The notes beneath the pieces were generated by a model. It did no database searches. It was given only the letters and a program-made list of their open reading frames with translations, and was not told the origin of the DNA. Shown piece by piece: positions 29,192 through 59,682 of a DNA stretch of 64,000 nucleotides. Location of the stretch: IMG/VR virus record IMGVR_UViG_3300042387_002391. One strand, written 5' to 3'. The translations under genes and the position numbers were made by a program. Origin of the DNA: a virus. The first letter of the stretch is position 1. Each line of letters begins with the position of its first letter.

Positions 29192-29812
29192 TTATTTAAT
29201 GGCGTTCAGATTATTTTTCTTCTTTCTAATCATATTAAATTGATTAAATTGAAAATCCGCAGTAGTTTCAAGAATTTCTCCGTCTCTATAAGAATAGTTA
29301 ATTCCTCTCAAATTTGTAATAAAAGCATTGTGATAAACAAATTCGACAACAGTTTCATTATATTCATTCAGTGCAAGAATTGAAAAAGTGGTTTGATATT
29401 CATTAACCATTCCGCTTTCCATGCTTGCTGCAGCAGTCATCAAAGCTCCTGGTGTTCCATCATAAATACTCAAGCGCGGATCATTCAAAACAGCAAGCCA
29501 TCTCCACAACACATAATAATTTTTATAATCATTATCAACAACAAAGTTAACAGAAATTGGGGGATGGTTTGGACGATGGTGTGAAGAAAAGTTCAGTGTC
29601 TGACCGACCCAATCTACTTCCACGGCTGGTACAGTAATGTCTGGCACAATTGTTCCGTGAACACTAATTTGCACAGAATCAATATCTAAGTCTGGATCGG
29701 TTTTGCTCATCTCTCTTAAAATCTTCGGAAGAGTTAAGACAAGAATAAACTTATCCTTCGAAGCAACGTTCAAAGGAGACTGGAGTGTTGGATTTTGGCA
29801 AATTTCAGACAT
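29192..29812 (-). CDS. tail completion / tube-like protein (T4 gp3-like)
   Basis: VNFVVDNDYKNY..LWRWL, FVYHNAF..L.GI.Y, tube-fold pattern. Confidence 0.7.
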   Translation of the reverse strand: MSEICQNPTLQSPLNVASKDKFILVLTLPKILREMSKTDPDLDIDSVQISVHGTIVPDITVPAVEVDWVGQTLNFSSHHRPNHPPISVNFVVDNDYKNYYVLWRWLAVLNDPRLSIYDGTPGALMTAAASMESGMVNEYQTTFSILALNEYNETVVEFVYHNAFITNLRGINYSYRDGEILETTADFQFNQFNMIRKKKNNLNAIK

Positions 29813-31775
29813 CTTGGTTGTAATATGTGTATCCCATTTCTAGGAGCGATTCTTCATCTAAATCATACTTATCAAGAGTTTCAAGTTCTTTCTGAGTAAT
29901 TCCGAGAGCTGGATATGCAAGATTTTCTTCAGCAGCTGGTTTCGGAACAACTGAAGGATTTTTACTAAGATCTTTCAAATCATAATTTTCTGTAAAGTTT
30001 TCCCAGTAACCATTCGGAACAATTTTTAAAGGATGGTTCTGTAAGTCAAAATCTACAATCTGAAAGTATTGTTCGACTATTTCGGTTTTGAGAATGAATA
30101 AAGCCCAAGTAAGAGCCATAATTCTATCGTCGAAGAATTTATCTGTTCTTTTTTTATAAACGCCATTTGGATGTTTCACAAATGTTTCAAACTCAGAAAT
30201 TGTTTGCGGGTCGTTTATTTGTACGCATTGCAAATGATTTACCCAATATCTCATATTTCCAATTCCGTCACTTCTGATATTTGTATGAGAAAGTACTCCA
30301 AGATTTCTTGTTGTATTGTATTTGTCTGAAGTAGATATTTTTGAATATGCAACAATTTTTTCGTAATTGTGATGATAATGCAGAGCATCAATAACTTGGG
30401 CACCGCAATTGTTTCTTTCAATCAGTATTGGAGGCACACCCCAAGATTGTCCGATTGTTAGCAGTTTATTTGCAAAGTGGTATGGTTCAATAACTGCTGA
30501 ACCGTATACAGCCACTTGCTGAATGTTTTGAAGATCCGTTACATCAAGAATTTGAGCAACAGATGCTGCTCTTCCAATACCTTCTCCAACGTCTACTCCG
30601 ATTACATAAAGTTTATTCTTATCGGGATATTCAAAGACGCTGTAGTCACCTTCTTCTGAAGTCCAAATCGGAGGCTTTTTAGTTTGTTTAAATCTTTCTA
30701 TGAGAAGTGCTCCAACTGCTGAGGTGGAGTCGTCAAGGAAGCAATTATGAACTAGCACGCCGTTTGCATAGTAACAAGAACCATCAACACTTATGAGATC
30801 ATATACCCATCTTTTTTGTTTGATCTTTTTTATGTTAGTAATCTTTTGCAGTTCTCCTCGCTCTCCTTCTAAAAAATCTCCTACGCTTAGCGAATCAGCT
30901 ATCTTGAGTTCTCCTTCTACGATAAACGGATGCTTTAGTGACGCAACTATTTTTGTTCTGTCTGTTGTAAACTCTAAAACATTTTTCTTGAGTCTCTGAA
31001 CTCCTTTAAATGAACGAAGTCCCCAAGGTGTAGACACTTTTAAATTTTTGTCGTTAATAGCTACATTTTCTGAGAGCAATTCTTTAAAAAGATCGTATAA
31101 GTCTCGGATTTTATAAAATTTTGAATCTCCTTCGTTGCTTATGTAAACTTGTGACGAACCTCCTACGCAATTGTTAAATTCTTGCAAGAACTTTTCTTCT
31201 GATCCGAGAGCAGCAATCATTGTCTCTTTCCATGCTTGATCTCTTCCAGGAACTTCCCACCAATCAATTCTTTCTGCTTTCCAAGGCGGATTTAAGTTCT
31301 GTTCAGCCTGTGAATATATTTCGTAAAATTTATTTCCGACTCCCTGTGGCGTACTCACCAGTAATATTTTAGACTTTTTGCCAGACGAAATTGTAGGAAT
31401 AACCGATGACCAAAATTCTTCAAGCAAGTGTGTATTGTGATGGAGAACTCCGTTTGAGTAAAACATCCGACTAGGCACATCAACAATATCATACACAAAA
31501 TCTTTGTTTTTCAGCTTTTCTTTTGCAATAACTTTATCGAGACCACTCTTTGTTTGAATAATTCTATTCTTGCAATTTCTAACAAGCAAACTATCGCCCT
31601 TTTTGTCTATTAGTGAATGGTTTGCTGACGCTTTAAATGTTAAGCCAGATCTCGTTGTAATTTTATAAATGGACTTTGGTCGGTATTTGGCAACACCTTT
31701 AAAAACTTCCCATCCATTAGGCGTTTCTATTTTTATGCCTTTTGTATTTGGTTTAAACTCAATTAAATCCTTCAT
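29805..31775 (-). CDS. terL: terminase large subunit fragment 3 (IntC2 + ATPase C-part + mini-intein + nuclease)
   Basis: STPQG coupling motif, GVDVGEG nuclease motif, ERNN, DDRIMA; begins with 114 aa intein C-fragment ending HN|T. Confidence 0.93.
   Translation of the reverse strand: MKDLIEFKPNTKGIKIETPNGWEVFKGVAKYRPKSIYKITTRSGLTFKASANHSLIDKKGDSLLVRNCKNRIIQTKSGLDKVIAKEKLKNKDFVYDIVDVPSRMFYSNGVLHHNTHLLEEFWSSVIPTISSGKKSKILLVSTPQGVGNKFYEIYSQAEQNLNPPWKAERIDWWEVPGRDQAWKETMIAALGSEEKFLQEFNNCVGGSSQVYISNEGDSKFYKIRDLYDLFKELLSENVAINDKNLKVSTPWGLRSFKGVQRLKKNVLEFTTDRTKIVASLKHPFIVEGELKIADSLSVGDFLEGERGELQKITNIKKIKQKRWVYDLISVDGSCYYANGVLVHNCFLDDSTSAVGALLIERFKQTKKPPIWTSEEGDYSVFEYPDKNKLYVIGVDVGEGIGRAASVAQILDVTDLQNIQQVAVYGSAVIEPYHFANKLLTIGQSWGVPPILIERNNCGAQVIDALHYHHNYEKIVAYSKISTSDKYNTTRNLGVLSHTNIRSDGIGNMRYWVNHLQCVQINDPQTISEFETFVKHPNGVYKKRTDKFFDDRIMALTWALFILKTEIVEQYFQIVDFDLQNHPLKIVPNGYWENFTENYDLKDLSKNPSVVPKPAAEENLAYPALGITQKELETLDKYDLDEESLLEMGYTYYNQDV
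30744..31169 (-). mobile_element. contiguous mini-intein (142 aa) in TerL
   Basis: QEFNN|CVGG...ASLKH...VYDL...YYANGVLVHN|CFL. Confidence 0.92.
31434..31775 (-). mobile_element. split intein C-fragment IntC2 (114 aa)
   Basis: TPNGW, ASANH, VYDIVDV, FYSNGVLHHN|T. Confidence 0.9.
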
Positions 31776-32938
31776 AATTGATTATATAACTCATCTATGG
31801 TTGAAGAAACAATTTGATTTTCAGAGTTCATCAGATTAATTTTTGAGTCTCCTTGGAGACACTCTATGAACGCACATTCGTCAACCATGACGCAATTATG
31901 CGCTTGCAAACCGTTTGCAAAAAAGTGATGGTGCTCTGTCTCAATTACATCAAAAACTTCTGTTAGTTTATTCTTAGAAATTTCTTCAATCGAAATTATT
32001 TTTTCTGGTCCGTCAACGGTTTGAATAATATCACTAATGCTGAAATTTTTTGCTTGCTTAAATTCCGACGAGTTAAAAAATAACAAATGATCTTCTGTAC
32101 AAGAAACTTCCTTTTTGCTTTCTGTAGTTAATTTTAAAATGGGACTACTGACAGTGCTTCTTTTAATTCCCGAAAAGCTGCTCCAACCTGTTCCGGTTAG
32201 TACTTTAGAATTTTGTGTATTAAGCTTTTGTTTGAGTGTTTGCTCAAAAGGATTCCCAAATATTTCAAAAGCTTTTGATAATGTTATCTCTCTCTGATCA
32301 GACTCTCTGTCGTTAATTGTTATTTTGCAATCTCCTGTAAGACAGTTTAAAGAATCGCCGCGAATAGAAGTAGCTGTCGTAGTCGAAACTATAATGCTCG
32401 AGTCGTTGCCGAGCGTCATTCCAGTTTTTGCATAATCTTTTACACCTGGTTTGATATAGTTTGGAAGCTGTTCGTAAGCCATCCTAATTCTTTTAAAAAT
32501 GTTGATTGCTGTTGTTTCTTTATTAGCTACAATAGCAACTCTATAGTCGTCATGAAAACAAACCATCCAAAGTGAAAAGATAGTAAGAAGTGTCGAATTG
32601 TGAGACAAAATACCGTTAGAATAAAATCTGTGATTATCATCTTTCACAGCAACGTCATACATATTTTCGATCTTATCTGTCTTTTTGATTGAAGTAATTT
32701 TTTGAAGGCCCTTTTCTGTCATGATCTCATCGCCCTCTCGAAGATCTTTTACATAAACTTCTTGCAAATATTTTTTGTAGACAATGTGTTCGTCAGCACA
32801 CTCTAGAAAAAAATTTTTAGTTTTAATTTTCCAGACTTGGTACGGAATAGTTTTGTAAGCAGCCTCAAGATCTTGCCAGCCACTGTCAGTCATTATTTCG
32901 TAATCTGAAATTTTTCTTGTTTCGATGATTTCTGCCAT
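31772..32938 (-). CDS. terL: terminase large subunit fragment 2 (IntC1 + ATPase core + mini-intein + Walker B + IntN2)
   Basis: extein STLLTIF..VANK..IRG and CVMVDECAFIE (Walker B). Confidence 0.93.
   Translation of the reverse strand: MAEIIETRKISDYEIMTDSGWQDLEAAYKTIPYQVWKIKTKNFFLECADEHIVYKKYLQEVYVKDLREGDEIMTEKGLQKITSIKKTDKIENMYDVAVKDDNHRFYSNGILSHNSTLLTIFSLWMVCFHDDYRVAIVANKETTAINIFKRIRMAYEQLPNYIKPGVKDYAKTGMTLGNDSSIIVSTTTATSIRGDSLNCLTGDCKITINDRESDQREITLSKAFEIFGNPFEQTLKQKLNTQNSKVLTGTGWSSFSGIKRSTVSSPILKLTTESKKEVSCTEDHLLFFNSSEFKQAKNFSISDIIQTVDGPEKIISIEEISKNKLTEVFDVIETEHHHFFANGLQAHNCVMVDECAFIECLQGDSKINLMNSENQIVSSTIDELYNQL
31775..31861 (-). mobile_element. split intein N-fragment IntN2 (29 aa)
   Basis: AFIE|CLQGDSKINL...STIDELYNQL then stop. 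Confidence 0.88.
31895..32344 (-). mobile_element. contiguous mini-intein (150 aa) in TerL
   Basis: RGDSLN|CLTGD...CTEDH...VFDV...FFANGLQAHN|CVMVDE. Confidence 0.93.
32597..32938 (-). mobile_element. split intein C-fragment IntC1 (114 aa)
   Basis: TDSGW, CADEH, MYDV, FYSNGILSHN|S. Confidence 0.92.
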
Positions 32939-32943
32939 TTTCT

Positions 32944-34359
32944 TTAATTAGTTTGTTTAATTTCTTTTAAAACAGGAGGCTCTAAAAGAAATTCTAAGCA
33001 AGTGTTAAGAATTTTTTGTTTGTCTTTGTAATAATCCATTTCTGGAATGTGCAAAATCTTGCAGTTAATTGCTTCTACAATTTGTTGATCTCTTTTTTGA
33101 TCATTTTGAGTTCCTCTTCGATTTCTTTCGTCGTGCCAATATGCTCCATCAAATTCAATGCACTTGTTAATGCTCTTAATAAAGAAATCCAACCTTCTGT
33201 AAGTAGTAGATGTTTGAACTTTGTATTCAAGAGTTTTTCCCGTATCTTCTTTAGCACCATTGTTAAAGGTTGCAAAGAAAATATCCGAAGGATCAAACAA
33301 TTGTTTTATTTTCTCGTAAATTGACCAAAATAATTCTTGTGAAACCTTTGAATATACAGAAGATTTGTTTGAATCCATCCATTTTTTTGTAATTCCTTTT
33401 CTAATTTCTGTTGCTTCTTCAAACGAGCATTCGTGTCTCCTAGCAATAGCTTCTACAGAATTTGTTGTTTGTCTTTCTCTCACTTTTTCTTTTGCCTCTT
33501 CTTCTGTATATCCTCTTTTCAACCAATAACCTTTTTGGTTTGGCATATTTTGAAGTTCTTTTTGTCTTTGGCTAATTTTTTCTCCGTTATCGTTTCTATT
33601 CTCAAATTTGTTGTGCCACAAAACGTTGCAAGACGAATTGTGACAAAAGTTTCTGTAGCCTGCTTCAATATTGTAGAACGGAACTGGTTTACAGCACCAT
33701 TTACAAGTGCCTGTTGCAGAAGGATCAACATATTTTTTGTAGTAGTCCTCCAGAGGCATTTGCAATTTTGCTATGTGCAATGAAAGTCTGCTGAGAGAGG
33801 GAAATTTTTCGCCGTCAATTGCGCATTGATATGTTAAATCGTCTGTTGTATATACGCCTTTCTTGAGTTTAGAATCTCTGTTATAGTGAAGCGTGCAGCA
33901 AGCATTTGTTCTAGTTTGTTCATAAGGAACTTTGTTGTCGCAAGAAGCAAGTCTGCATTTTGTATCATCCAAAATGTATTTGTTGTAAAGAAATTTTTTC
34001 TGCTCACTAGAGAAGTTATTTTTTGTCATGCACAAAGCAATTCCTGCCCAACCTGAAAAATAATTGTTGATTTCTTCTACGTATATAAAATTTTTGATGG
34101 CTGATTTGCATTTTTCTTTGTCCTTGTATTTTTTAAAAGTCTTTTTAATAATCACTCCGCAAAACAAGCCGCAAGATTTATATGTCTCGTAAGTTAGTTT
34201 GCGGTCAGTAATCATGCACCTCGGACATATGTCGGAAGTAAAAATAAAGGTATCATAAAAATTCTTGACGTTGTTCTTTCCCTCTTTTGTAGACACAGCT
34301 CTCAGCAGGCCTGTAACGTTGTTGTAATTTTTATTTTGGTAGGTTATATGGTTTGCCAT
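32944..34359 (-). CDS. free-standing homing endonuclease (Vsr/DUF559-like C-terminal nuclease, Cys-rich N-terminus)
   Basis: LDFFI....CIEFDGAYWH...KRD...ILHIPE; lies between the halves of split intein 1. Confidence 0.82.
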   Translation of the reverse strand: MANHITYQNKNYNNVTGLLRAVSTKEGKNNVKNFYDTFIFTSDICPRCMITDRKLTYETYKSCGLFCGVIIKKTFKKYKDKEKCKSAIKNFIYVEEINNYFSGWAGIALCMTKNNFSSEQKKFLYNKYILDDTKCRLASCDNKVPYEQTRTNACCTLHYNRDSKLKKGVYTTDDLTYQCAIDGEKFPSLSRLSLHIAKLQMPLEDYYKKYVDPSATGTCKWCCKPVPFYNIEAGYRNFCHNSSCNVLWHNKFENRNDNGEKISQRQKELQNMPNQKGYWLKRGYTEEEAKEKVRERQTTNSVEAIARRHECSFEEATEIRKGITKKWMDSNKSSVYSKVSQELFWSIYEKIKQLFDPSDIFFATFNNGAKEDTGKTLEYKVQTSTTYRRLDFFIKSINKCIEFDGAYWHDERNRRGTQNDQKRDQQIVEAINCKILHIPEMDYYKDKQKILNTCLEFLLEPPVLKEIKQTN

Positions 34360-34422
34360 AAAGTTATTTATCTACCTTTAAGGCCTTTTCAACTTTGACT
34401 CGAAACTAAAATTGCTGCTAGA

Positions 34423-35199
34423 CTATTTAGAAGCTAGTTCGAACAAGTCTTTGACTGAAATTTCCTGTATTTCTCCAGTCTTTTTGTTGCGAACCTTTAT
34501 AATACTTTCAGATTGAAGGCACTTCCCAACTTGGCGAGATGAAAGAACGCAAGCCATACGCTCTCGGACAAACGTTCTCAGAACTCTTCTCTGAGCCTCA
34601 TACAACTCAATCCTTACTTTGCCTTTATCAAGGTTTATAATATAAAAAAAGTTTTCTGCAAAATAAATGATATCGTCTTTGCATTTTACTAACTCACTAA
34701 CCATGTCTGCAGTAAACTCATACTGAGCTCCTGCTACTGGAATGTTTTTAGAACCTCTATAATAATATGAAGGATCGATTGGTTCTTGGTTAATAATTTT
34801 TTGTGTGGAAGTATTATAACCAGCTTCTGTAAATTTATCGTCGTCTAGAGTAGCATTCAGCAAATCATTCTCTGTTACTTTTGGAGCTTTGGTTTTTTTT
34901 ACAGGTTTCGCTTCCAAGGTTTGAGAAACCTCGAACTCTTCCTTCTCTTTCTTTTCTTTCTTCTCTAACTGCTTAACGGTTGGAATTCTAATAACCTTTC
35001 CGTCTTTTTTAATAATAGGTGGTCTACCAATTGGTCTTTTCTTCCCAGACCCTTTCGGACGTCCTCTCCTTGGCTTATTTTTAACGCCCTTTGGACGCCC
35101 TCCCTTATTCTTAAAAACTGGCTGCTCTTGCTGAGAGTGCTCGTTGCTTTGAGAAATTTCTGGAGCTGCTTGGTTATCTTGTTCTGACTGTTCTTCCAT
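34423..35199 (-). CDS. terL: terminase large subunit fragment 1 (N-terminus to Walker A + IntN1)
   Basis: YRGSKNI, KCKDDIIYFAENF, LYEAQ, SSRQVGK; N-terminal GRP (AT-hook-like) repeats. Confidence 0.92.
   Translation of the reverse strand: MEEQSEQDNQAAPEISQSNEHSQQEQPVFKNKGGRPKGVKNKPRRGRPKGSGKKRPIGRPPIIKKDGKVIRIPTVKQLEKKEKKEKEEFEVSQTLEAKPVKKTKAPKVTENDLLNATLDDDKFTEAGYNTSTQKIINQEPIDPSYYYRGSKNIPVAGAQYEFTADMVSELVKCKDDIIYFAENFFYIINLDKGKVRIELYEAQRRVLRTFVRERMACVLSSRQVGKCLQSESIIKVRNKKTGEIQEISVKDLFELASK
34426..34521 (-). mobile_element. split intein N-fragment IntN1 (32 aa)
   Basis: RQVGK|CLQSESIIKVRNKKTGEIQEISVKDLFELASK then stop. Confidence 0.92.
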
Positions 35200-35230
35200 G
35201 GCTTCTAATTAGCCCTCAGAAGCACCTTTT

Positions 35231-49375: not shown

Positions 49376-49738
49376 TTATTCATCGTCAAACAATTTCACT
49401 ACGTCAGCACTTTTCTGTTGAGCAGGCTGCGGAGGTGCAAAAAGCTGATCATACTGAGCAGCAAATTGAAAAGCAAAAGGAATTGAATCGCTGAGAGTAA
49501 TATTTGCCTTATTAAAGTGCCATACCGTTGGTTGACCTTTATCTGCTTGAAATTCCTTGAAAAACAAGGGAAGAATTTGAAGCTGGAGTTGGTTTGTTTG
49601 TGAATTTGGTTGGATATGAACCAGAGCAGGATTCTCAATAGTCAGAGTGGTCTCTGTTTGCTTAATTGCTTTTCCGATGACTGTTCGTCCGATTGTATCG
49701 AGGAACACTGTTAGTTCTTTGTTGGTTGTTTCACTCAT
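49376..49738 (-). CDS. conserved hypothetical protein (Sm-like fold possible)
   Basis: GRTVIG...IENPA; C-terminal VVKLFDDE. Confidence 0.75.
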   Translation of the reverse strand: MSETTNKELTVFLDTIGRTVIGKAIKQTETTLTIENPALVHIQPNSQTNQLQLQILPLFFKEFQADKGQPTVWHFNKANITLSDSIPFAFQFAAQYDQLFAPPQPAQQKSADVVKLFDDE

Positions 49739-50100
49739 AATTTGTAAGCCTTGACCTTCTTTGATTTTTTAGAAAGTTCAACAACCTGCGTGACATAAAG
49801 CAAAACTTTTTCTCCTTTCGGAGTTAGCATAATTCTGTCATCCGAAGCAATCCAAATCAGATCATAAACTTCGAGCATGTACATAAAATCTCCGGCAAGG
49901 TCGCAAGTAATATAATCAACAAGATAACAATCCTCATTTACAATACTTTTTAAAGTATCATAGAGCTCTTGATAGGAAAGAGCTTGAAGAATTTGTTCTG
50001 CAGAGTACACAAAGGTAATTAGTTCACATTCCAAACATTTCAAAAAGATCTGTCTGAACTTCTTTTCCAATTTGCGGTAAAGACCATCCAATTGCTTCAT
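49735..50100 (-). CDS. hypothetical protein
   Basis: C-terminal winged-helix-like LTPKGEKVL; start uncertain. Confidence 0.55.
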   Translation of the reverse strand: MKQLDGLYRKLEKKFRQIFLKCLECELITFVYSAEQILQALSYQELYDTLKSIVNEDCYLVDYITCDLAGDFMYMLEVYDLIWIASDDRIMLTPKGEKVLLYVTQVVELSKKSKKVKAYKL

Positions 50101-51637
50101 ATAAGCGCTCAGTTGGTTGCGTGACTAATTTTGCAAACATCCTATCCCAATCTGGCTTCAGACCAAATTCTAAAGGAAGTGTCGAAACGTATGTAATTGC
50201 GTCCAAACCGTATTTGTTCTTTGTGCAATATAACTTCTTAACTTTCTGTCCAGTCTGAATTGCTTCAAATTTATCATCAATTTTAAACTCTTTAATAAGA
50301 ATATTATAAGCAATTGCTCCTTTGACATGAGAAGGAGTTTTATTTGCAAATTTGTAGAGCGATGATCCTTCTGCATATTTGTCGAGATTGTTAATAGAAG
50401 TTCTGGCAGCAACATCATTAGGATCAAGATTCAAAAATTCATTATAACCTTCTCTATAAACTTCGTTGGTTTGCTTTATATTTTGAGTAAGAAGTGCTGT
50501 TTGAATAATTTTTTCAATAAACTTCTTAACTTTCTTCGGAGTTGTTGAGCGAACAAGTTCAATTCCTGTATATTTAAATTTATCTACAGCAACGCCCTCT
50601 TCATCAAGAACGTGAAGAACATATCGCTTCTTTTGCAAGAATATTCCAACATCCGAAATAACTTCTCTCTTGAAAACATATCGAGGATCAACTGAAAATA
50701 ATTCTTTCCTAGCCCACTCGAGAATTTCTGTATTGACTACTTTATCGAGTTCATCAACAATTTCATGAACCTTTTCATTAACCTTTCCATCAATTGTAAG
50801 AGGAATGTTTTGCTTTTGGAGAATTGGATCAATTGTTATATAAACAGAATTATGAACAAGAATGTCATTAGCAAAGAAAGTATGCTCTGTGTCATCTGCC
50901 ATTTCAATATCATAAACATATTCATCTTCAAACTCTCCAATGTGTTCTACTGAAGTAATATCAACAATTAAAGGGGTTCTGTTTACATTTACAACAAATT
51001 TATCAGTATCTTTGCAAACTTGCTTTGGAGGCAATCTCAACAAAGTATTGTCTCTCCAAACCATGCAACCATGATCTTCTGTCATTATTACTTCGTTGCC
51101 ATTTGCACAAACTTTATATTTGCCTTTTGAAACTTTGTGACGAATGAGCTTTTTTATTTTTCCAAAAACAATTTCGTGATTTTCGGAATTATAAGTCAAA
51201 CATTGCAAATCGATGTCAGAAACATCCAAAATTTCATGACCAAATTGTGAGAGGTCTGTTGGACTGTTTTTGAATTTTTCATACAAGTCACCAATGCAAA
51301 TATCCCCTTTATTAGTGGTTATAACAGTGCTAAAAATTTCACTGTCCGTATCGCCATATTTGGTAACTGACTCAGAAATGCCGTATTTTTCTCTTACAAA
51401 ATTGTCAAGAATGTTTCCTCCAGCCTTGGCAACGCTTTGGCCAGTTGCTGTAATAGATGAGGCATGATCCAAGTCCATCAAAGACGAGTGTTTGTTAGAC
51501 GTGACACCATAGGCGCTGTTCAAGAGCACCTTCAAAGCGGCATTAAGATTGTTGTAGTGGGTTATACTCCATACCATTTTCTTCTCTAATTCCTTCAACT
51601 CTTCTAGAGTCATTTCTTGATAGGATTTTTTTGTCAT
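50024..51637 (-). CDS. family B DNA polymerase fragment 3 (fingers C-helix, palm, thumb; with mini-intein)
   Basis: KVLLNSAYG, YGDTD|..|SVY, KKRY, GIELVRS, C-terminal clamp-binding DLFEMF. Confidence 0.95.
   Translation of the reverse strand: MTKKSYQEMTLEELKELEKKMVWSITHYNNLNAALKVLLNSAYGVTSNKHSSLMDLDHASSITATGQSVAKAGGNILDNFVREKYGISESVTKYGDTDSEIFSTVITTNKGDICIGDLYEKFKNSPTDLSQFGHEILDVSDIDLQCLTYNSENHEIVFGKIKKLIRHKVSKGKYKVCANGNEVIMTEDHGCMVWRDNTLLRLPPKQVCKDTDKFVVNVNRTPLIVDITSVEHIGEFEDEYVYDIEMADDTEHTFFANDILVHNSVYITIDPILQKQNIPLTIDGKVNEKVHEIVDELDKVVNTEILEWARKELFSVDPRYVFKREVISDVGIFLQKKRYVLHVLDEEGVAVDKFKYTGIELVRSTTPKKVKKFIEKIIQTALLTQNIKQTNEVYREGYNEFLNLDPNDVAARTSINNLDKYAEGSSLYKFANKTPSHVKGAIAYNILIKEFKIDDKFEAIQTGQKVKKLYCTKNKYGLDAITYVSTLPLEFGLKPDWDRMFAKLVTQPTERLYEAIGWSLPQIGKEVQTDLFEMFGM
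50849..51343 (-). mobile_element. contiguous Ser1/Ser+1 mini-intein (165 aa) at YGDTD|S
   Basis: SEIFST...LIRHKV...TEDH...VYDIEM...FFANDILVHN|S. Confidence 0.93.
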
Positions 51638-52850
51638 ATGGTTCAAAATATTTTAAGTCTTCGTCTGTTAAATTTAACACGATGTCGATTACTCGTTCGT
51701 CTTCTATCTTAGCATTCTTTTTCTTATTTTCTACTGAAGTTAACATTTGTAGGTTTTTAAAGTGTGACATTTTTTGGGGATCAATGTCGTGCTCAAAGCC
51801 GTAAATTTTAGGTAGAACATGGTCTATGTGAAACTTCTTTAATCCTCTCGGAAGATTGTCGGGATTAATAACATTTCTGTGGAGTCTATATGATATGGTC
51901 GTATAATACTCTACTAAAAATTTGTATTCTGCCCACTTTTCAGGATCTCTATGTTTTCTATTGCTTAGTCCTGTATATGTCCATCTACATCTTTCGCTAC
52001 AAAAATCACGATAACCTGTATTAAGCGTTTTAAACTCACAAGGCTTATTGCAAAAAAGACATTCGTCAGGTTTATCTTTTTCATACATGAAAAGATGATA
52101 CGATTCAGGTTTTGTTTTTGCTGGATATTCTTTTACAATTTTCGAATGAATTGAAGGAAAGTAATGTTCTACGAAATACGTCATCGAACAATAATCGATC
52201 TTATTGAGCTCTGTAATAAATTCGTGCAAGTTTTTCTCATCGTGTTTGTTAGCAAATTCTGCAAGTGCTTGATATGAGTATCCCACCGACAATGTTTGAA
52301 ACTGCAAGTGTTTGCCGTTGCAAATTATTGGTTCTATATCATGATAATAACAGTAAAGAGCTTCCCTGTTATGTTTGCATTTTTTTCTAATTTCTTTGAG
52401 TTTTTTGTATTCGTCAGGAAAGGCTAGTTTAGCAACATCGATCAATTGTACTCCTGAAAGTTTATTGTCAGCGCATACCTTTATTATGTCTTTCAGCGAA
52501 CTTTTGTTGTTGGTATTTTCGATGAGAACATGCACATTAACGTTTTTCCAAACATACTTGGTGGAAACTATAATGTCGTTATAAATCAACGGTGTATAAT
52601 TTTTTTCTGTAAAAGAAATTTTTTTAAACTCGCCGCTTACGGTTTTATAGTACACTGTCTTTCCTTCAACCTTTTTCCAAAGATCCGGATAATCTGATTT
52701 AATCTTAGCAAAACTATCTTTGGTGTAGTTTGCGTTAATAAATTTTCTTGGAGTAGAAAGAGTTTTTGTAATCAACTCTACCAACTCATTATTTTCTTCA
52801 GAACTTCCGTAAGTAGGGTTTTCGCTATTGTTACTATTATCAATTATCAT
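51543..52850 (-). CDS. free-standing HNH homing endonuclease
   Basis: C-terminal HIDHVLP...NLQML..ENKKKN; CLFC..FCSERC. Confidence 0.82.
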   Translation of the reverse strand: MIIDNSNNSENPTYGSSEENNELVELITKTLSTPRKFINANYTKDSFAKIKSDYPDLWKKVEGKTVYYKTVSGEFKKISFTEKNYTPLIYNDIIVSTKYVWKNVNVHVLIENTNNKSSLKDIIKVCADNKLSGVQLIDVAKLAFPDEYKKLKEIRKKCKHNREALYCYYHDIEPIICNGKHLQFQTLSVGYSYQALAEFANKHDEKNLHEFITELNKIDYCSMTYFVEHYFPSIHSKIVKEYPAKTKPESYHLFMYEKDKPDECLFCNKPCEFKTLNTGYRDFCSERCRWTYTGLSNRKHRDPEKWAEYKFLVEYYTTISYRLHRNVINPDNLPRGLKKFHIDHVLPKIYGFEHDIDPQKMSHFKNLQMLTSVENKKKNAKIEDERVIDIVLNLTDEDLKYFEPYDKKILSRNDSRRVEGIREENGMEYNPLQQS

Positions 52851-52866
52851 GATAATAGTATTTATG
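52832..52866 (-). promoter_or_regulatory. late-type promoter overlapping an 11-bp hairpin that buries the HNH start codon
   Basis: CATAAATA (52866-52859); TACTATTATCA/TGATAATAGTA inverted repeat. Confidence 0.7.
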
Positions 52867-52874
52867 CTATAAAT

Positions 52875-54167
52875 TTATTTTTCTTTGGATTTAATAGCCT
52901 TTTTGATTTTGGCGAGCTCTTGCTTAAAATAATTCATCTGATCCTTACTTTCTACACGCTCTTTGTAGATCTGATCGATTAGATTTGGAAGAATACCTTT
53001 GGTTTTTTGACTATACAATACTCCAGCCTTAGTGAGTGCTACATTTTCTTTGACTAGGAATTCTTTAAATTTTTGTCCCGAAAGCGTATGAATCTTGCCA
53101 TTCAAAAGCCTTATCGAAATTTCTCCTTTTGGATCATTAGCAATATTCCCGAAATCTCCTTGAACAACTTTCCCTAATTTTGTTTCTGGAGAAATGTTTA
53201 ATGTAATAATAGTATTGGGATATAGTGAATTAACGTCAAAACTCACAATCGACTTTTGAATACCTCTTTCTGGATCTCTTACAAACCCTCCTTCAAAAGC
53301 TTCTCTGTCAAGATTGTTCGGAAAGGTGGGAATAACCATTCCTTGTTTATGAGCCTGAATAGCAACTGCTCCCGTAACAACTGCAACTTTTCCGAGGGCT
53401 GCTTCAAAATTTGTGCATCCCTTATAAGCAATCATTCTAGCAATTTCCAAGAATTTGAGCTTTTCTTCAAGCTTTACGAGCAAATGCACATCTTGAATAT
53501 TGTAATCTACAAACAATTTCCAGTCTGTATGAGCCAATTCACCTAAGCTAACTGCATTATAAGCAATCTTTCCTTCTCCGAGTTCAAGTTCAGCAATATA
53601 ATTTAAACTAAACGATTCTTTCTCTCCAGGCGAAAAGGCTTTATAAAGATCCATGTAATCAATCAAAGACACTCCGCTAATCGACCATACAGTAATTTCT
53701 TTACCCATGTCAGTAAAGACTTTCCTTCCTCTCACATTTCCAACTGGCGACAACTGTTTTACGAAGTCGTCGCCAAAAATTCTCGTAAATCGATTAATGA
53801 TATAAGGAAAGTCAAACCCAGAAGAATTCCAACCTGAAGCAATATCTGGATAATCGCTCTTCCAAAAATCTACAAATTGCAAGATCAAATCTTGCTCATC
53901 CTTACATCTGTGATAAATGCAATCAGGAAGAGTTGGAGTATATTGCTCCTTAAGTCCCCAAGTATGAGTTGCTTTGGTTAAGGTATCATAAATTGTTATC
54001 AAATTGATAGGAACGGCTGCTCTCTCAGGAACTGGGAACTGTCCTCTCTTTGCGTAACAAGTTTGAGAGTAGCTAACCCATTTGTGCTGTTCTTCATCAT
54101 ACACCTCATATTCTTCTTTATCAGAAAGTGTTAAAAAATTTTCTATGCTAATTTGTTGTTCTGTCAT
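52875..54167 (-). CDS. family B DNA polymerase fragment 2 (exonuclease II/III, motif A, fingers N-helix)
   Basis: FPVP, GWNSSGFD, YNIQD, EGGFV, FDVNSLYP. Confidence 0.95.
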   Translation of the reverse strand: MTEQQISIENFLTLSDKEEYEVYDEEQHKWVSYSQTCYAKRGQFPVPERAAVPINLITIYDTLTKATHTWGLKEQYTPTLPDCIYHRCKDEQDLILQFVDFWKSDYPDIASGWNSSGFDFPYIINRFTRIFGDDFVKQLSPVGNVRGRKVFTDMGKEITVWSISGVSLIDYMDLYKAFSPGEKESFSLNYIAELELGEGKIAYNAVSLGELAHTDWKLFVDYNIQDVHLLVKLEEKLKFLEIARMIAYKGCTNFEAALGKVAVVTGAVAIQAHKQGMVIPTFPNNLDREAFEGGFVRDPERGIQKSIVSFDVNSLYPNTIITLNISPETKLGKVVQGDFGNIANDPKGEISIRLLNGKIHTLSGQKFKEFLVKENVALTKAGVLYSQKTKGILPNLIDQIYKERVESKDQMNYFKQELAKIKKAIKSKEK

Positions 54168-54948
54168 ATGAATATCTGTTGCGATAAGTAATCATTCTGC
54201 TTCTAGCTTTAGGATTAATGGTCAATAAATATGCCTCAAATTCTTTCTCACTCATTTTTCCTAAACGTTCTGTTAGAATCTGTGGCTGATTTGTCTTTTT
54301 TCCTTTTGATATATTAGCTCCACGTTTCTTATGGTCAACGTTTTTGTTGTGAAGAGAATTTAAGCATCTTTGAATTTTTTGTTCAGGTGTCAACGTTTGA
54401 ATAAAGGTTTTAAGAGTGTTGCTGACATTTTTATATTTTTCTTCTTTCGTAATTTTTGGCTTTTGTACTTTAGGAGCATAATTATGTCCAAACAAATACT
54501 TGCTTTGTTTTTGCTTGACAGGGTTTCCGCACCCACAACAACACAGCGGCAGAGGATCCTTGGGAGGTCTTGGTTTAGATAACATTGCTTCTCTTATTTT
54601 TTGCCTTACTTCAGGACACTTGGTTGGGTGATTTTTAGCAAATTCGATGCGCGCAATCTCAAATTGTTTGCTGTTAAAAAATCGCTGGTGGTGATTCTTT
54701 GAACACATTTTATTGAATGCTGAGGCCAGCTTGCTTCTCACTTGTATCGAGTCGTTTTGATGAATTTTGCATAACAATCTGTGTATTAGAAAGTGTTCTC
54801 TTGCCGTAAGTTTGACTAAATTGTCGCGATCATTTGTTCCGCCTAAACATTTTGGTAAAATGTGATGTTTTTCGTAGTATTGGCCACTTATTGTTTGTCT
54901 GGATTTAGATCTTTCAATAATCGAGTCGTGCACATTTTTATAATTCAT
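54148..54948 (-). CDS. free-standing HNH homing endonuclease (Mob-like, NUMOD-like C-terminus)
   Basis: YYEKHHILPKCLGG..NLVKLTAREHFLIHRLL. Confidence 0.9.
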   Translation of the reverse strand: MNYKNVHDSIIERSKSRQTISGQYYEKHHILPKCLGGTNDRDNLVKLTAREHFLIHRLLCKIHQNDSIQVRSKLASAFNKMCSKNHHQRFFNSKQFEIARIEFAKNHPTKCPEVRQKIREAMLSKPRPPKDPLPLCCCGCGNPVKQKQSKYLFGHNYAPKVQKPKITKEEKYKNVSNTLKTFIQTLTPEQKIQRCLNSLHNKNVDHKKRGANISKGKKTNQPQILTERLGKMSEKEFEAYLLTINPKARSRMITYRNRYSYDRTTN

Positions 54949-54951
54949 ATG

Positions 54952-54974
54952 TGCGTTTACTTAATCTAAACGCA
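54952..54974 (-). promoter_or_regulatory. hairpin containing late-type motif just upstream of HNH ATG
   Basis: TGCGTTTA-GATTAAG-TAAACGCA, ending 3 nt before ATG. Confidence 0.65.
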
Positions 54975-54994
54975 ACATCTACCTCGATATCAAA

Positions 54995-55396
54995 TCATGT
55001 TTGCCGTTTTCTAATCTTGATTTTGTGTGATTTTGGATATGATGAGGTATCAACTTCAATATCCAACAAAAATACTTTCAAAGGAAATTGCGAAAAGGTT
55101 GGATCTCCATTCTGCTCCTTATACATATCAATAAGGAATTGCTGTTCTGGTCCAAGATTATGAAAGATTCTTTTGTTAGCTGTGTTGTCTACAAACTTCT
55201 TGCGCTCTAAACTATTCTTAAAAGTCTTCTTCATCAAAGAAGTCTTGAAAATCGATACAGCATCTTCTGCACCATCCTTCTCAAGATACAAAAACGGACG
55301 AAAAGGAATCTCTGTATCAATTCTCTGACCATCTTCTGTCCAAGTTCTCAAGAAGACCGATTCATTAAAAGGATTGTAGGAAGCAGCGCGATACAT
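54995..55396 (-). CDS. family B DNA polymerase fragment 1 (N-terminal domain + ExoI)
   Basis: MYR..W..DG.R...PFRPFLY; FLLDIEV, then 16 aa tail. Confidence 0.9.
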   Translation of the reverse strand: MYRAASYNPFNESVFLRTWTEDGQRIDTEIPFRPFLYLEKDGAEDAVSIFKTSLMKKTFKNSLERKKFVDNTANKRIFHNLGPEQQFLIDMYKEQNGDPTFSQFPLKVFLLDIEVDTSSYPKSHKIKIRKRQT

Positions 55397-55427
55397 GCTT
55401 CCTACAATATACTAAACCAAACTAAAA

Positions 55428-57854
55428 TCAAACTAAAAATTTACGATCCTTTGAACCAAATGGCGTGAAATAAACTTCATGATATTTCATCAAATTCTTT
55501 TCATCATCAAGCCAGAATTTTTCCGCATATGCTCGAGCCTTTTTACAATGTTCTGCGTAAATGCTTTGGTTTTTGAGAACGGTTTTTAGACAGTCAATGA
55601 ACTCTGCACCAGTCTTATATTTTAAAGAAGCATCTTTGTAGGTAACCATATCAGGACATACGCAAGGAAGACCAAGGGCACCCGATTCGATTAATTTAAT
55701 ATTGCTATTGTGCGAAACTATTCCATTAGCAATATAAGACTTTGTAGCTGGAACGCAAATATCATACACAATTTCTTCATCTTCTAGATGCTCGATAGAA
55801 ACAACTTCGTCTTTCCATTGAAATTCTTTGTATGCGTTGCTGTGAGACTTACTGCAAATATTGCGCAAGCGTTGTTTTTTAAATTCGGAAACAAAACCAA
55901 TTTCTTTCTCGTAAATATCGCAACCCTCTCTGGTAATTCTAATATTGTAATGATGACCAGTATAAACTTTTTCGGTTTCCTTCGATTTACCGAATGGTCT
56001 GGTGTACATAGAAATTTCTTTCTTAATTTTGCTATGAATACCAAAGCCAAGTAGTAAAATCTGTATGTCTTTAGCAAATTTTTCTGACTTAGTGCAGAAT
56101 AAAATATCAGTACCATTTCTTCCGACTGTAGCATCGGCTTCAAACAAACCTTTGATAAACTGAGCTACTACCGATTTTCTTGATTGCCAAATAAAGTTCG
56201 GAACAAACAAGTTCTTGCTTTGTTTTCTTGTTGTTAGTCCCATCCATTCAAACATCCTTCTGAGCAATCTAGAGTTACAAGAAATGGTTTGGTGGTTAGT
56301 AAAGTCGTATGTAGATTGATAGCGCTTTGGCTCAATACCTAACTGACTAATTAAATATTTCACATCTTCTATGACTTCTTGGTCTCTGTTGCAGCAAACG
56401 ATCGAAATGCAATTACCAGCTGAAAAATGACCGTCTCCTAAAATGTAGCCAAACAGTCGAGCAAACTCTTCGTTAAATCTCACCAAAGGAGAAATGGCCT
56501 TGTCTTGAATGTGAATAAAGTCTTCGATAGTTATTTTTTTAGTATTCCAAAACGGAAGCTGAATTTCTTGATATGGTAAATTTTCTTCCAATTGATACTT
56601 AGAAAGATTCACGAAATCGCCAATTTTTATGTCTTTCATTTCAGTCCAATCACTGTCTTTTGAAATTCTGTGAGTGATGGTCCCTTTAATCTCATAGCCC
56701 ATTTTTGTGACCACCTTAATAATTTTTTCCGTCTTCGGAGAAATATAGTAAGCATTGCTCTCTTCAAATTTATTGTCCTGAGAAAGCGTCTTAAATTTTA
56801 CATTGTTTTTGTTATTTTGATCAAGCTTACTAACTGAGTTACAGTAGTCTTCAATTTTAATTAATCCCTTTCCTTTAACTTGAATCATCGTGTCGCCCGT
56901 AACGCATTTGCTGCGATTGAAATGATTATCTTGAAGAGCTGCAAAGGTTACCTGTGCTCCAGATTTTGCCATTGCTTCTGGAAACTCGACAAGAGGAGCC
57001 CACGGAAAGAATCTCATTTCTCCGCTATCAATAAATGGCTTGAGAGGAAGTGGATAAGATCCGTAAAAGTGCCATTGAAAATCTTTGCGTGTTTTAATAA
57101 TGTTCGGAACAACAAATTCAAAGTCATCCTTTTGATTAACTCTATTCATTACATCAACATGCGTTCCGGATGCAAAAATAGCAACGATGGGTTTCTTCTT
57201 ATTCTTATCAAACTTCTTAATGAGATCTCCAAGATTATAATAGCGGTCAAACCACCATTTCATCAGATAGTTTGGAACAGTTGTAACATTCTTGTTACCT
57301 GTCTTATTAATCATATAGTCTCTAAAATAATCACAAGTAACCGTGACTTCGTCCATCATAGAAATAATTTCTAAAATGCTGTTACGGATTTCGTCAGAAA
57401 CAAATGCATCTCTATTCCTATTATACATTGGAATGTCTTCATGGAATACGACGTCATCGACTTCATAAATCAGCTTCAGAGGCTTTTGTGTTGAAATTTG
57501 TTTGAGAATTTTAACAAAGTCTCTTTGATGAGGAGTTGCTTGCCTTTGAAGTTTAACAGCTTCGACTGTCTGATAGAATTTTGGATCAAGCACCATTGCT
57601 GTTGATTCCATGATAACTGCTTTCTGATACAAGTTGAGTAAAAGATTTGGAGCCATGCAGCGGTAATATCCACATCCGCCATAATCAGCAAGATAGTTTA
57701 GAGCACGCTTCAAACCTTCTCCGGGAACTTCTGGTGCTGGAACTGGTCTTTGTGCAGGAGAACGGTTAACATATGATGGAGAAGGAATGCCAAATGGAAG
57801 GCCGTGTGGTGCTCCAATCATATTTTGGATGCCTAATTGTACAGGTTGTGACAT
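55428..57854 (-). CDS. glycosyltransferase (GT-B-like) containing a LAGLIDADG intein
   Basis: DYGGCGYYR, YEVDD, FNRSK|..|SNIKLIE. Confidence 0.85.
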   Translation of the reverse strand: MSQPVQLGIQNMIGAPHGLPFGIPSPSYVNRSPAQRPVPAPEVPGEGLKRALNYLADYGGCGYYRCMAPNLLLNLYQKAVIMESTAMVLDPKFYQTVEAVKLQRQATPHQRDFVKILKQISTQKPLKLIYEVDDVVFHEDIPMYNRNRDAFVSDEIRNSILEIISMMDEVTVTCDYFRDYMINKTGNKNVTTVPNYLMKWWFDRYYNLGDLIKKFDKNKKKPIVAIFASGTHVDVMNRVNQKDDFEFVVPNIIKTRKDFQWHFYGSYPLPLKPFIDSGEMRFFPWAPLVEFPEAMAKSGAQVTFAALQDNHFNRSKCVTGDTMIQVKGKGLIKIEDYCNSVSKLDQNNKNNVKFKTLSQDNKFEESNAYYISPKTEKIIKVVTKMGYEIKGTITHRISKDSDWTEMKDIKIGDFVNLSKYQLEENLPYQEIQLPFWNTKKITIEDFIHIQDKAISPLVRFNEEFARLFGYILGDGHFSAGNCISIVCCNRDQEVIEDVKYLISQLGIEPKRYQSTYDFTNHQTISCNSRLLRRMFEWMGLTTRKQSKNLFVPNFIWQSRKSVVAQFIKGLFEADATVGRNGTDILFCTKSEKFAKDIQILLLGFGIHSKIKKEISMYTRPFGKSKETEKVYTGHHYNIRITREGCDIYEKEIGFVSEFKKQRLRNICSKSHSNAYKEFQWKDEVVSIEHLEDEEIVYDICVPATKSYIANGIVSHNSNIKLIESGALGLPCVCPDMVTYKDASLKYKTGAEFIDCLKTVLKNQSIYAEHCKKARAYAEKFWLDDEKNLMKYHEVYFTPFGSKDRKFLV
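55707..56906 (-). mobile_element. full-length intein (400 aa) with LAGLIDADG endonuclease
   Basis: CVTGDT, GTITH, LFGYILGDG, FIKGLFEADA, VYDICV..YIANGIVSHN|S. Confidence 0.95.
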
Positions 57855-57885
57855 AATTTTAATTTATTTGTAATTTGATTTTAAT

Positions 57886-59682
57886 CTAGCTCGTGACGGT
57901 CGAAATTCCGTTTTGTTTTGTAACATGAATAACATGCTCTGCTTTTGAAAGCACTTCTGGTCCTCTGTGAGTAATAATGTAACAAGATTCATTATTTTCA
58001 TTAAACCGCTCACGAAGAACTTTGAGAGTCAAAGAAACGCCTTTATCATCTAGCGAAGAATCAAGAAGCTCATCATAAAAAACCGTGCTAAAATTTACAT
58101 CGCCTTGCAAACGACGAATATCTGCAAAGGCAAACAGGCAGGCGAGGTCAATACGTTTGCGCTCTCCTCCAGAAAAGTTGAAGTAAGACTTTTGTTGTGA
58201 ATTTTCATCAATGATTTCTTCATCAAAGAACTCATTAAACTGACACAAGCAATTTGCTTCAAGCTTTTTAAGATAGTAAGCAATTCTCGAATTAAGAACT
58301 TTGAGAATTTTTTTGACAATGAACGACTTAATTCCTTCTTCAGAAAGAACGAATTTTACCGTTTCAAGAATATTCAGTTCGTTGTTGAGCTTATCCACAT
58401 TTGCTTTTGACTCCACAGCAACATTTTTAAGCGTCGTAATTTTTCCTTTGAGGTCATTATTGTGTTCTTTAGAAGCGCATTTTATGTCGTCTTCAACTTC
58501 GTTTAAATTGCCTTCCAAATGCTTAATACTAATCTGTAGTGAATTTACGTCAGAATGTTGTTTTTGAATGGAAGACTTTTTAGTATTCAGCTCTTCTCGC
58601 TCTTCTCTTAATTTTTTTGCATTTTCATTGACTGAAGAAACTGATTCACCAACTACGACTTTTGCCTTTTCGTATGTTTGGATTGTTTCTTGATGCTTTG
58701 CAATTAAATCTTGAACATGCTTTACATGCTCTTCAGAGTATTCTCTGTTACAAGTCGGGCAAGAGTCTTTGTTTGTTTGCAGTTGTTTAATTTGCTTGTT
58801 CTCTGCATTGATTTCTGCATCAATCTTATGAATTTTAGATTGCAAAGAAGTTTGTTTTTCTTGCAAAGTATTCAAAGATTCTTTTACTTTTAAAAGTTGT
58901 TCATCAATCTCTTTATCAGAAACAATTTGATATTTTGCTAACTGCTCTTTGAGATTAGAAATATCTACTATCAACTTAGCCTTCTTATCGCTAAGTTTAT
59001 TGACTCTTTCTTGTTTGATAGTTTCGTAGTTGTCAAATTGAGATTGGTTGAAATTTAGTTCGTTTTCTGTTTGCTCAAATTTTGAATAAGCAATTTCATA
59101 GTCCTTTTTTGCAATACTATGATCATCTCGAGCCTTCAAAACCATTTGTGTAAAAACTTCTAGACCAAGAACGCTCTCGATAAATTTTCTCCTATCAGTC
59201 TTCGGTAGCGCCATAAAGGGCTGCGCATTATTTGCTGACATGATAACAGAGTTTTGAAAGACAGTTGCTGGCGTATGAATCAAATCCTGAATAAATGCAT
59301 TTGTTTTAGCAAGTGTTGATCTCGTAACATCTTCTCCGTTCTTAAAGAGTTGGCATTTTGTTGGACCAAGCTTTCTGCAAATTTTATAAGTGTCCGTAAC
59401 ATTATTAGAAGTTACATCAAACTCCAAAGAAACTTCACAGCGCTTTTGAGTAAAGCTGTTTTGAATAAAATCCTTAGGAATCTCCCTAAGTGTTGTGCCG
59501 TAAAGCGAATAATAAAGAAATTCTGTAATGCCGCTCTTCCCAGCAGCATTTTTAGAATCTTCTTTATCGAGATTTGTTCCGACAATAGCATTGACTCCTG
59601 GTCTAAGATCGACTTTTACAGGAACATCACCAAACGACAAAAAATTTCTTCCTTCTAAAGTCTTAAAATTAATAAAACGCAT
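57886..59682 (-). CDS. SbcC/Rad50-like recombination endonuclease subunit (T4 gp46-like)
   Basis: NFLSFG, NAAGKS, CPTC hook, FSGGE, DE, ITH. Confidence 0.95.
   Translation of the reverse strand: MRFINFKTLEGRNFLSFGDVPVKVDLRPGVNAIVGTNLDKEDSKNAAGKSGITEFLYYSLYGTTLREIPKDFIQNSFTQKRCEVSLEFDVTSNNVTDTYKICRKLGPTKCQLFKNGEDVTRSTLAKTNAFIQDLIHTPATVFQNSVIMSANNAQPFMALPKTDRRKFIESVLGLEVFTQMVLKARDDHSIAKKDYEIAYSKFEQTENELNFNQSQFDNYETIKQERVNKLSDKKAKLIVDISNLKEQLAKYQIVSDKEIDEQLLKVKESLNTLQEKQTSLQSKIHKIDAEINAENKQIKQLQTNKDSCPTCNREYSEEHVKHVQDLIAKHQETIQTYEKAKVVVGESVSSVNENAKKLREEREELNTKKSSIQKQHSDVNSLQISIKHLEGNLNEVEDDIKCASKEHNNDLKGKITTLKNVAVESKANVDKLNNELNILETVKFVLSEEGIKSFIVKKILKVLNSRIAYYLKKLEANCLCQFNEFFDEEIIDENSQQKSYFNFSGGERKRIDLACLFAFADIRRLQGDVNFSTVFYDELLDSSLDDKGVSLTLKVLRERFNENNESCYIITHRGPEVLSKAEHVIHVTKQNGISTVTS

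Follow-up and report, generated by a model that had tools for sequence, protein, structure and literature searches.

The DNA polymerase gene of the virus record IMGVR_UViG_3300042387_002391 from IMG/VR, of which a stretch of 64,000 nucleotides (nt; the window in the following) was analyzed, is interrupted directly behind its ExoI motif by an insertion that holds a free-standing HNH homing endonuclease gene and extends both neighboring polymerase fragments. It is likely that this insertion represents a nuclease cassette combined with a split mini-domain that acts as a non-splicing clasp between the polymerase fragments. Two aspects are new, namely that both extensions are halves of one defined folded domain that is also found whole in other polymerases, and that the unit of domain plus nuclease recurs across many lineages, in which four evolutionary states have been sampled.

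According to this reading, the region 54039–55045 would be a mobile cassette built around the HNH gene and located in the loop that a T4-like family-B DNA polymerase (PolB) has behind its ExoI motif. The two ends of this region encode the halves of a mini-domain of about 55 amino acids (aa) with the predicted order beta1-beta2-helix-beta3-beta4, where beta1 forms a basic C-terminal tail on fragment 1 and the rest an acidic N-terminal head on fragment 2. On its entry into a polymerase gene without the domain, as in the lineage of the window, the domain halves would have been copied in along with the nuclease gene, because the recipient had no counterpart of them. The two polymerase pieces would be translated separately and never joined, and tail and head would refold across the break into the mini-domain, which would then help to dock the ExoI-bearing fragment 1 onto fragment 2 as a non-covalent clasp.

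The extent of the insertion can be seen from the nearest empty allele, the polymerase P0082 on the freshwater contig L080, with an amino acid identity of 96–100% to fragment 1 and 92–98% to fragment 2. The DNA of L080 aligns to the window as far as base 55047 at 90% identity and again from base 54040 at 91%, and holds 14–15 nt (TVEAG, five codons) in place of about 1006 nt of the window. Since this module-free allele is nearly identical on both flanks, tail and head belong to the insertion. This bears out the initial annotation of this DNA, which had pointed to an extra tail after DIEVDT and an extra head before FPVPE and whose coordinates were right to within a few bases, the head having 43 aa instead of the 37 that had been counted to the cysteine. 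Other close unsplit relatives (related viral contigs, 65–88% identity) show DIEVDT, four to six residues and FPVPE without interruption, and the module is lacking in all 120 closest longer homologues of fragment 1. Positions 54039–55045 on the minus strand are an insertion of about 1 kb directly 3' of the ExoI motif, a very precise deletion in the relatives being less likely.

The surroundings of the insertion site show a mosaic pattern as well. Fragment 1 (55046–55396) is 98–100% identical to P0083, P0085 and P0087 up to residue ~114; the ExoI loop of these three proteins reads DIETYSPNAFP, and downstream of it the identity goes down to 83–92%. These sequences are mosaics whose breakpoint lies at ExoI, which would be expected near a homing site. 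A co-conversion tract, sought as a drop of identity beside the insertion in comparisons with L004 and other contigs, was not found, and the identity stayed at ~88% up to the junction.

The combination of tail, nuclease and head is found in many other polymerase genes. The tail motif Y-x-x-x-H-K-I-K-I-R-K-K is common to every split relative examined, and the head motif I-T-L-x-E-F ... D-Y-E-V-W-D-E ... W ... C-Y opens fragment 2 in each of them, so that the two extensions are not fortuitous. Homologues of fragment 1 with a similar length end in the tail motif, and their contigs are ordered fragment 1, HNH gene, fragment 2. A search of viral and metagenome contigs with the head alignment led to 38 further loci. 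Tail, homologous nuclease and head occur together in about 20 distinct split lineages, with the break always at one point, and the tail is kept across 18 distinct tails. The nucleases of the split relatives, which have the same position, are 35–48% identical to that of the window, and the polymerases of the split lineages 33–61%. In four lineages (L038, L042, L043 and L058, with 16–98 nt between the cistrons) the nuclease has been lost and the split with both halves was kept; in L041 the nuclease is frameshifted. In cleanly aligned pairs with a synonymous divergence (dS) near 1, including the nuclease-less L058, the ratio of nonsynonymous to synonymous divergence (dN/dS) is 0.02–0.10 for the tail and 0.03–0.12 for the head, and 0.05–0.07 for the adjacent polymerase core. 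These ratios indicate that both tail and head are under strong purifying selection, like the polymerase core.

The same module of about 55 aa also stands uninterrupted between ExoI and the FP motif in unsplit PolBs of 890–1180 aa from at least eight lineages (L046/49/50, L064/69/70, L066–68, P0029, P0034, P0059, P0064, P0070, P0073 and P0080). Its end, about 55 aa in, consists of (C/S/R)-Y and three to six variable residues, followed by the polymerase FP motif. As read from the listed sequences, the unsplit L066 and P0059 and the split L054 and L078 share one lineage-specific version of the module. A profile search against 1.84 billion representative proteins gave 69 matches; the non-repeat matches that were inspected were all polymerase N-termini or internal polymerase sites, and the remaining ones were Kelch- or FG-GAP-like repeat proteins with a generic hairpin motif. 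Among the inspected non-repeat matches the module was found in no split gene other than PolB, so that the co-occurrence of the two peptides for which the initial annotation had proposed a search holds for the ExoI split in about 20 lineages and was not seen to extend to other split genes.

Because the module is uninterrupted at the same site in unsplit PolBs, it is a polymerase insertion domain that is targeted and carried by the nuclease and not a split-specific device, and the nuclease has its home in the first hairpin turn (beta1-beta2) of this domain. The suggestion that the module is kept only as an association device of a split gene is not supported in this form, as it is contiguous in many unsplit PolBs. 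The occurrence in unsplit PolBs of the same segment without similarity to HINT domains had been named beforehand as evidence against the proposal, and one half of this condition, the contiguous forms, does exist. Furthermore, the closest relatives of the window polymerase work without the mini-domain, which is therefore dispensable for polymerase function as such.

For the contiguous module, AlphaFold2 (AF2) with an alignment of 37 rows predicted two strands (16–21 and 24–29), a helix (30–36) and two further strands (42–45 and 50–53), with a mean predicted local distance difference test score (pLDDT) of 75. The natural break corresponds to the turn at 22–23, between the first two predicted strands. 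The association of the halves was addressed by a complex prediction on custom alignments, in which a 50-aa head was paired with the C-terminal 34 aa of fragment 1; it gave a score of 0.40 compared to 0.02 for the best of three controls and thus weak support. The runs agreed in at least 89% of the contacts, with a pLDDT of the partner of at least 54. The mark set for this score was passed by 58 of 80 solved complexes and by 2 of 110 mismatched pairs; among those that passed, 7 of the 80 solved complexes and both mismatches scored 0.60 or less. With 7 K/R/H among its 16 residues the tail is basic, and with 9 D/E versus 2 K in its first 37 residues the head is acidic, as had been noted before. 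This polarity and the complex prediction fit a refolding across the break and are not proof of it. Of the bipartite module of about 55 aa that the initial annotation had proposed for association, the conservation, the persistence of both halves after loss of the nuclease and the break in a hairpin turn have been substantiated; the association itself is plausible from the modeling. A language-model comparison listed PolB exonuclease fragments as look-alikes of the module (0.87), which serves as a lead only.

Several observations weigh against a clasp that came in with the nuclease. A close donor for the cassette of the window was not found, the best module match being 55% and the best nuclease match 48% identical, and the direction of the event (gain here versus precise loss in the relatives) is therefore deduced, chiefly because relatives without the module have a conserved linker, TT-x-D-S-x. 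The score of 0.40 falls into a range in which the prediction tool rates itself as mostly wrong, except for pairs that were likely on prior grounds. The fragments would also have in common the large native interface of N-terminal and exonuclease domain, which might alone suffice for assembly. In addition, the module is under equally strong selection in unsplit polymerases (the dN/dS ratio is near 0.1 in the unsplit L064 versus L069), and its conservation may therefore reflect another role of the domain than assembly. Finally, in the ribonucleotide reductase NrdA of phage Aeh1, which is split by mobE, the tails are needed only for later dimerisation and not for the pairing of the fragments (PMC3045599).

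The module could instead be a lineage-variable accessory domain with a job of its own, for example in binding to a replisome partner or to nucleic acid, in which the nuclease merely found a tolerant loop; the fragments would then assemble via the native polymerase interface, and tail and head would add little. This explanation, which we consider unlikely, draws on the contiguous module in at least eight diverse unsplit PolB lineages under equal purifying selection, on the finding that all inspected non-repeat matches among the 1.84 billion representatives are PolBs with no other split gene seen, and on the Aeh1 NrdA fragments, which pair without tails (PMC3045599). However, the domain is dispensable in the closest relatives, yet both halves are intact wherever the gene is split, lineages that have lost the nuclease included. 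The break always falls in the hairpin turn where refolding in trans would be easiest, and the isolated halves score well above the controls in the complex prediction. The origin of the mini-domain is a separate matter. The mini-domain may, although this is less likely than not, be the N-terminal lobe of an intein that formerly stood after ExoI and has decayed, an origin that would be compatible with the clasp mechanism: the nuclease would have broken the intein after its first strand, as in atypical split inteins, blocks B, F and G would have been lost later, and where unsplit polymerases carry the module in one piece, it would be a frozen stump of the intein or a re-fusion. Indeed, the topology strand-strand-helix-strand-strand predicted by AF2 is the one with which a HINT domain begins (~55 residues), and the break after ~16 residues matches natural atypical splits, as in the PolB16 intein with its N-piece of 15 aa (PMC10189870). 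Two halves around a free-standing nuclease are also the layout of a 'fractured gene' (PMC2677866), and a degenerate-intein origin has already been put forward for the NrdA tails by Crona et al. (PMC3045599). The initial annotation had seen an echo of intein strands in the two peptides, and this impression finds support in an hhalign comparison with the six inteins of the window (P=0.0014, in the expected register, with module 11–35 on intein 5–28), in pairwise z-scores of up to 6.2 between modules and a split intein of the large terminase (TerL) of the window, and in a hidden Markov model of the module, which, self matches aside, scores best among 5856 open reading frames (ORFs) with the N-piece (31 aa) of that same intein (E=0.0076). 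The N-terminal hhalign match was lost with a broader profile of 13 inteins (P=0.1, in a different register), as the likeness is carried by one lysine-rich intein and the other twelve have mean z-scores of 0–0.8. The HINT families of Pfam gave nothing relevant for module and head even at E<=10, and the module profile matched Kelch-type 'EVYD..W' hairpins and EVH1 domains among PDB sequences and zero inteins; the same hairpin motif accounts for the repeat proteins among the matches from the 1.84 billion representatives. The residue at intein position 1 varies across modules (S, A, M, N, K, R, H, C), and in agreement with the initial annotation the modules have neither TxxH (block B) nor blocks F and G nor a conserved terminal Asn (the final HN). 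An insertion with a full intein or anything longer at the ExoI site was seen in 0 of the 120 closest relatives, and the inspected non-repeat matches of the module profile held no full intein or intermediate, the module of ~55 aa running straight into the polymerase. Judged by these sequences, the likeness to HINT domains is weak and inconsistent, and membership in the intein family fails on the defining features, namely the nucleophile at position 1 and blocks B, F and G. That an intein lobe broken at an atypical split point (about 15 aa) lost its splicing chemistry and was kept and spread with the nuclease among phage polymerases purely as a non-covalent clasp is therefore a tentative idea; if true, such a clasp would be a natural end-point of intein decay, leading from a protein-splicing element to a portable assembly module.

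A covalent rejoining of the fragments, by trans-splicing at ...YSQ/T, by an intron or by translational bypass or readthrough, is highly improbable. The tail of the window begins with Ser and the head ends with ...SQ/TC, which superficially resembles an intein junction, and several inteins that look functional exist in this genome. These junction residues are however not conserved among homologous modules, blocks B, F and G are missing, and 55 aa are far below a minimal HINT domain, so that trans-splicing appears very unlikely from the sequences. Moreover, the nuclease ORF fills the gap between the fragments, the fragment-2 start codon of the nuclease-less L058 is out of frame with the fragment-1 stop, and unsplit polymerases retain the module in their coding sequence despite the lack of splicing residues. 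A group I or II intron was rejected, as there was no Rfam match at E<=10 in 49500–58000 and, with 46 nt of free DNA, no non-coding core. The earlier view of a nuclease placed in an essential gene without an intron is in line with the missing Rfam match, the filled gap and the lack of splicing residues. The idea that the head is an internal duplicate of the polymerase stretch that precedes ExoI (EQQFLI...), which arose by eye and from tblastn and PHROG alignments extending into the head, was also rejected (hhalign, P=0.44–0.76).

Directly 3' of the fragment-1 stop, a second copy of the ExoI codons is present at 54977–54994, which matches the real site in 14 of 18 nt (P<0.002 by shuffling in the window). 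Such a copy (GAYATHGAR) follows the fragment-1 stop at a distance of 2–16 nt in 13 of the compared loci, and most nuclease-bearing loci have a comparable one. The second copy tracks the ExoI variant of its own host modestly (11.6 versus 10.1 of 18 nt). Untranslated second copies were also observed in L039, L044, L051, L053, L054, L060, L061, L073, L074, L077 and L078. A motif resembling a late promoter, TATAAATA, often lies 3' of the second copy, and the window has a 7-bp hairpin instead. In the case of I-TevI, a look-alike of the homing site that overlaps the late promoter of the nuclease is the operator for autorepression (PMC2988022). By analogy, the nuclease may repress its own gene with the second ExoI copy as operator, or this copy may be a duplication scar. 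The resemblance to I-TevI suggests that the nuclease recognises ExoI-coding DNA.

The polymerase gene of the window lies in three pieces on the minus strand, as derived from the ORF list together with Pfam and PHROG searches; the coordinates are given in the table. The 3' end of the HNH ORF overlaps the start of fragment 2 by 20 nt, and the only free DNA between the fragment-1 stop and the nuclease start are 46 nt. For the 266-aa ORF the Pfam HNH match reaches 17.3 bits, which is under the cut-off; the HNH motif is present. The polymerase has all features of a T4-like PolB (gp43), i.e. the ExoI D-x-E, exonuclease and polymerase domains (PF03104 and PF00136) and YGDTDS, and is 33–35% identical to DNA polymerases of Kyanoviridae phages (with Synechococcus, Prochlorococcus and Methylophilales hosts). 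A tblastn search with fragment 1 against 50,697 phage records gave no match, and the family of fragment 1 is known only from metagenomes.

Table. Coordinates of the split polymerase gene and its insertion in the window
Feature	Position	Strand	Remarks
PolB fragment 1 ORF	55396..54995	-	133 aa
PolB fragment 1 core: N-terminal domain and ExoI strand, to DIEVDT	55046..55396	-	phrog_2062 DNA polymerase
Tail SSYPKSHKIKIRKRQT, 16 codons, predicted strand beta1 of the mini-domain	54998..55045	-	no counterpart in empty allele L080
Fragment-1 stop codon	54995-54997	-	
Untranslated second copy of the ExoI codons (F-D-I-E-V-D)	54977..54994	-	14/18 nt match to the real site
7-bp hairpin GCGTTTA / TAAACGC, immediately 5' of the nuclease start codon	54953..54973	-	read from the sequence
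Free-standing HNH homing endonuclease gene	54148..54948	-	266 aa; phrog_655, E=7.8e-43
PolB fragment 2 ORF	54167..52875	-	430 aa
Head, 43 codons, predicted beta2, helix, beta3, beta4 and short linker, fused to the N-terminus of fragment 2	54039..54167	-	
PolB fragment 2 core: remaining exonuclease domain and start of palm, from FPVPE	52875..54038	-	Pfam DNA_pol_B_exo1, DNA_pol_B; phrog_262, E=1.5e-107
PolB fragment 3	51646..50024	-	540 aa; own mini-intein at YGDTD/S

Further breaks and inteins exist in the same gene and its neighborhood. At the second break of the polymerase (50024–52875, minus strand), a 435-aa ORF at 51543–52850 is located between fragments 2 and 3, which belongs to no clear family and weakly matches PHROG 5104. 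Fragment 2 ends lysine-rich and fragment 3 starts glutamate-rich, and P0087 is continuous across this break. In a cultured cyanophage, Synechococcus phage S-H34 (L002, MT162467.2; 2249–5035), the DNA polymerase is annotated as two coding sequences with an 81-aa ORF between them; the position of this break differs from the ExoI split and is near the second break of the window gene. Fragment 3 (50024–51646, minus strand) contains a mini-intein with Ser1 at YGDTD/S, residues ~105–268, which is absent from the close relative P0087. The atypically split intein PolB16 OarG has the N-extein ...SGDTD (PMC10189870), which suggests that it occupies the same insertion site as the mini-intein of fragment 3.

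Upstream of the polymerase, an 808-aa ORF (55428–57854, minus strand) holds a LAGLIDADG intein of ~400 aa (about 55704–56912) that is missing from the otherwise 90–95% identical L080. The TerL gene (29808–35208, minus strand) consists of three coding pieces and contains two contiguous mini-inteins as well as two atypically split inteins with N-pieces of 31 and 29 aa. Between the halves of the first split intein lies an ORF of 475 aa (32947–34371) with a C-terminal motif that we take to be Vsr-like; no ORF separates the halves of the second.

The arrangement bears on how a selfish nuclease gene can settle in an essential gene without an intron or intein, and suggests that the nuclease may bring, or exploit, a small domain that is able to refold across the break. 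Four natural states are at hand, i.e. the empty site, the uninterrupted domain, the split gene with nuclease and the split gene after nuclease loss, and as several of them occur in near-identical genetic backgrounds the question can be tested directly at the bench. A clasp of this kind would add to the Aeh1 NrdA tails, the only worked example, a case that is both recurrent and widespread. Should the halves bind tightly, they would represent a very small natural peptide pair (16 aa and ~40 aa) for splicing-free protein assembly, and an intein origin, if true, would represent a new fate for inteins.

The closest precedent is NrdA-a/NrdA-b of phage Aeh1 with mobE (Friedrich 2007; PMC3045599). In both cases a free-standing HNH nuclease splits an essential gene of a T4-like phage with no RNA or protein splicing, and a basic tail on the N-fragment and an acidic one on the C-fragment are found that unsplit relatives (here the close ones) do not have. 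The tails of Aeh1 arose with the insertion and are essential for activity (Crona et al. 2011, Nucleic Acids Res, PMC3045599); the initial annotation, which knew of no description of such a module, had overlooked these element-derived essential basic and acidic tails and the degenerate-intein proposal made for them. Unlike those of Aeh1 NrdA, the tails of the window are halves of one recognisable domain that is uninterrupted in other polymerases, and their arrangement, which travels with the nuclease, occurs in about 20 lineages; proof of being essential exists for the Aeh1 tails, whereas those of the window are known here from sequence and prediction. A T4-like PolB in two cistrons is also found in the split gp43 (43A/43B) of the Aeromonas phages 25 and 44RR (Petrov, Ratnayaka & Karam 2010, as cited in PMC2988022 and PMC2677866), in one case with a homing endonuclease gene between the cistrons. 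According to these citing accounts, the nuclease there belongs, unlike that in the window, to the GIY-YIG/seg type, and in 44RR the cistrons are separated by an untranslated spacer instead (PMC2988022).

The order of N-part with half-domain, nuclease ORF with upstream hairpin and half-domain with C-part is also that of the 'fractured genes' (Dassa et al. 2009, PMC2677866), which likewise come from environmental phage-like replication genes and of which the TerL gene of the window is a genuine example. In contrast to these, the PolB halves lack the catalytic blocks and have ~55 aa in total, so that splicing is not expected, and the nuclease is of the HNH type instead of Vsr-like (PMC2677866). 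With atypically split inteins (PolB16 OarG with 15 aa, PMC10189870; TerL of the window with 29–31 aa) the module shares the break right after the first strand or hairpin, a short lysine-rich N-piece, the predicted strand-strand-helix-strand-strand order over the first ~55 residues and, in the case of the TerL N-piece of the window, a weak sequence likeness. Unlike the module, those inteins splice and are complete HINT domains (~140–185 aa) in which position 1 is Ser/Cys and both TxxH and a terminal Asn are present, and PolB16 is probably located at the YGDTD/S site and not at ExoI (PMC10189870).

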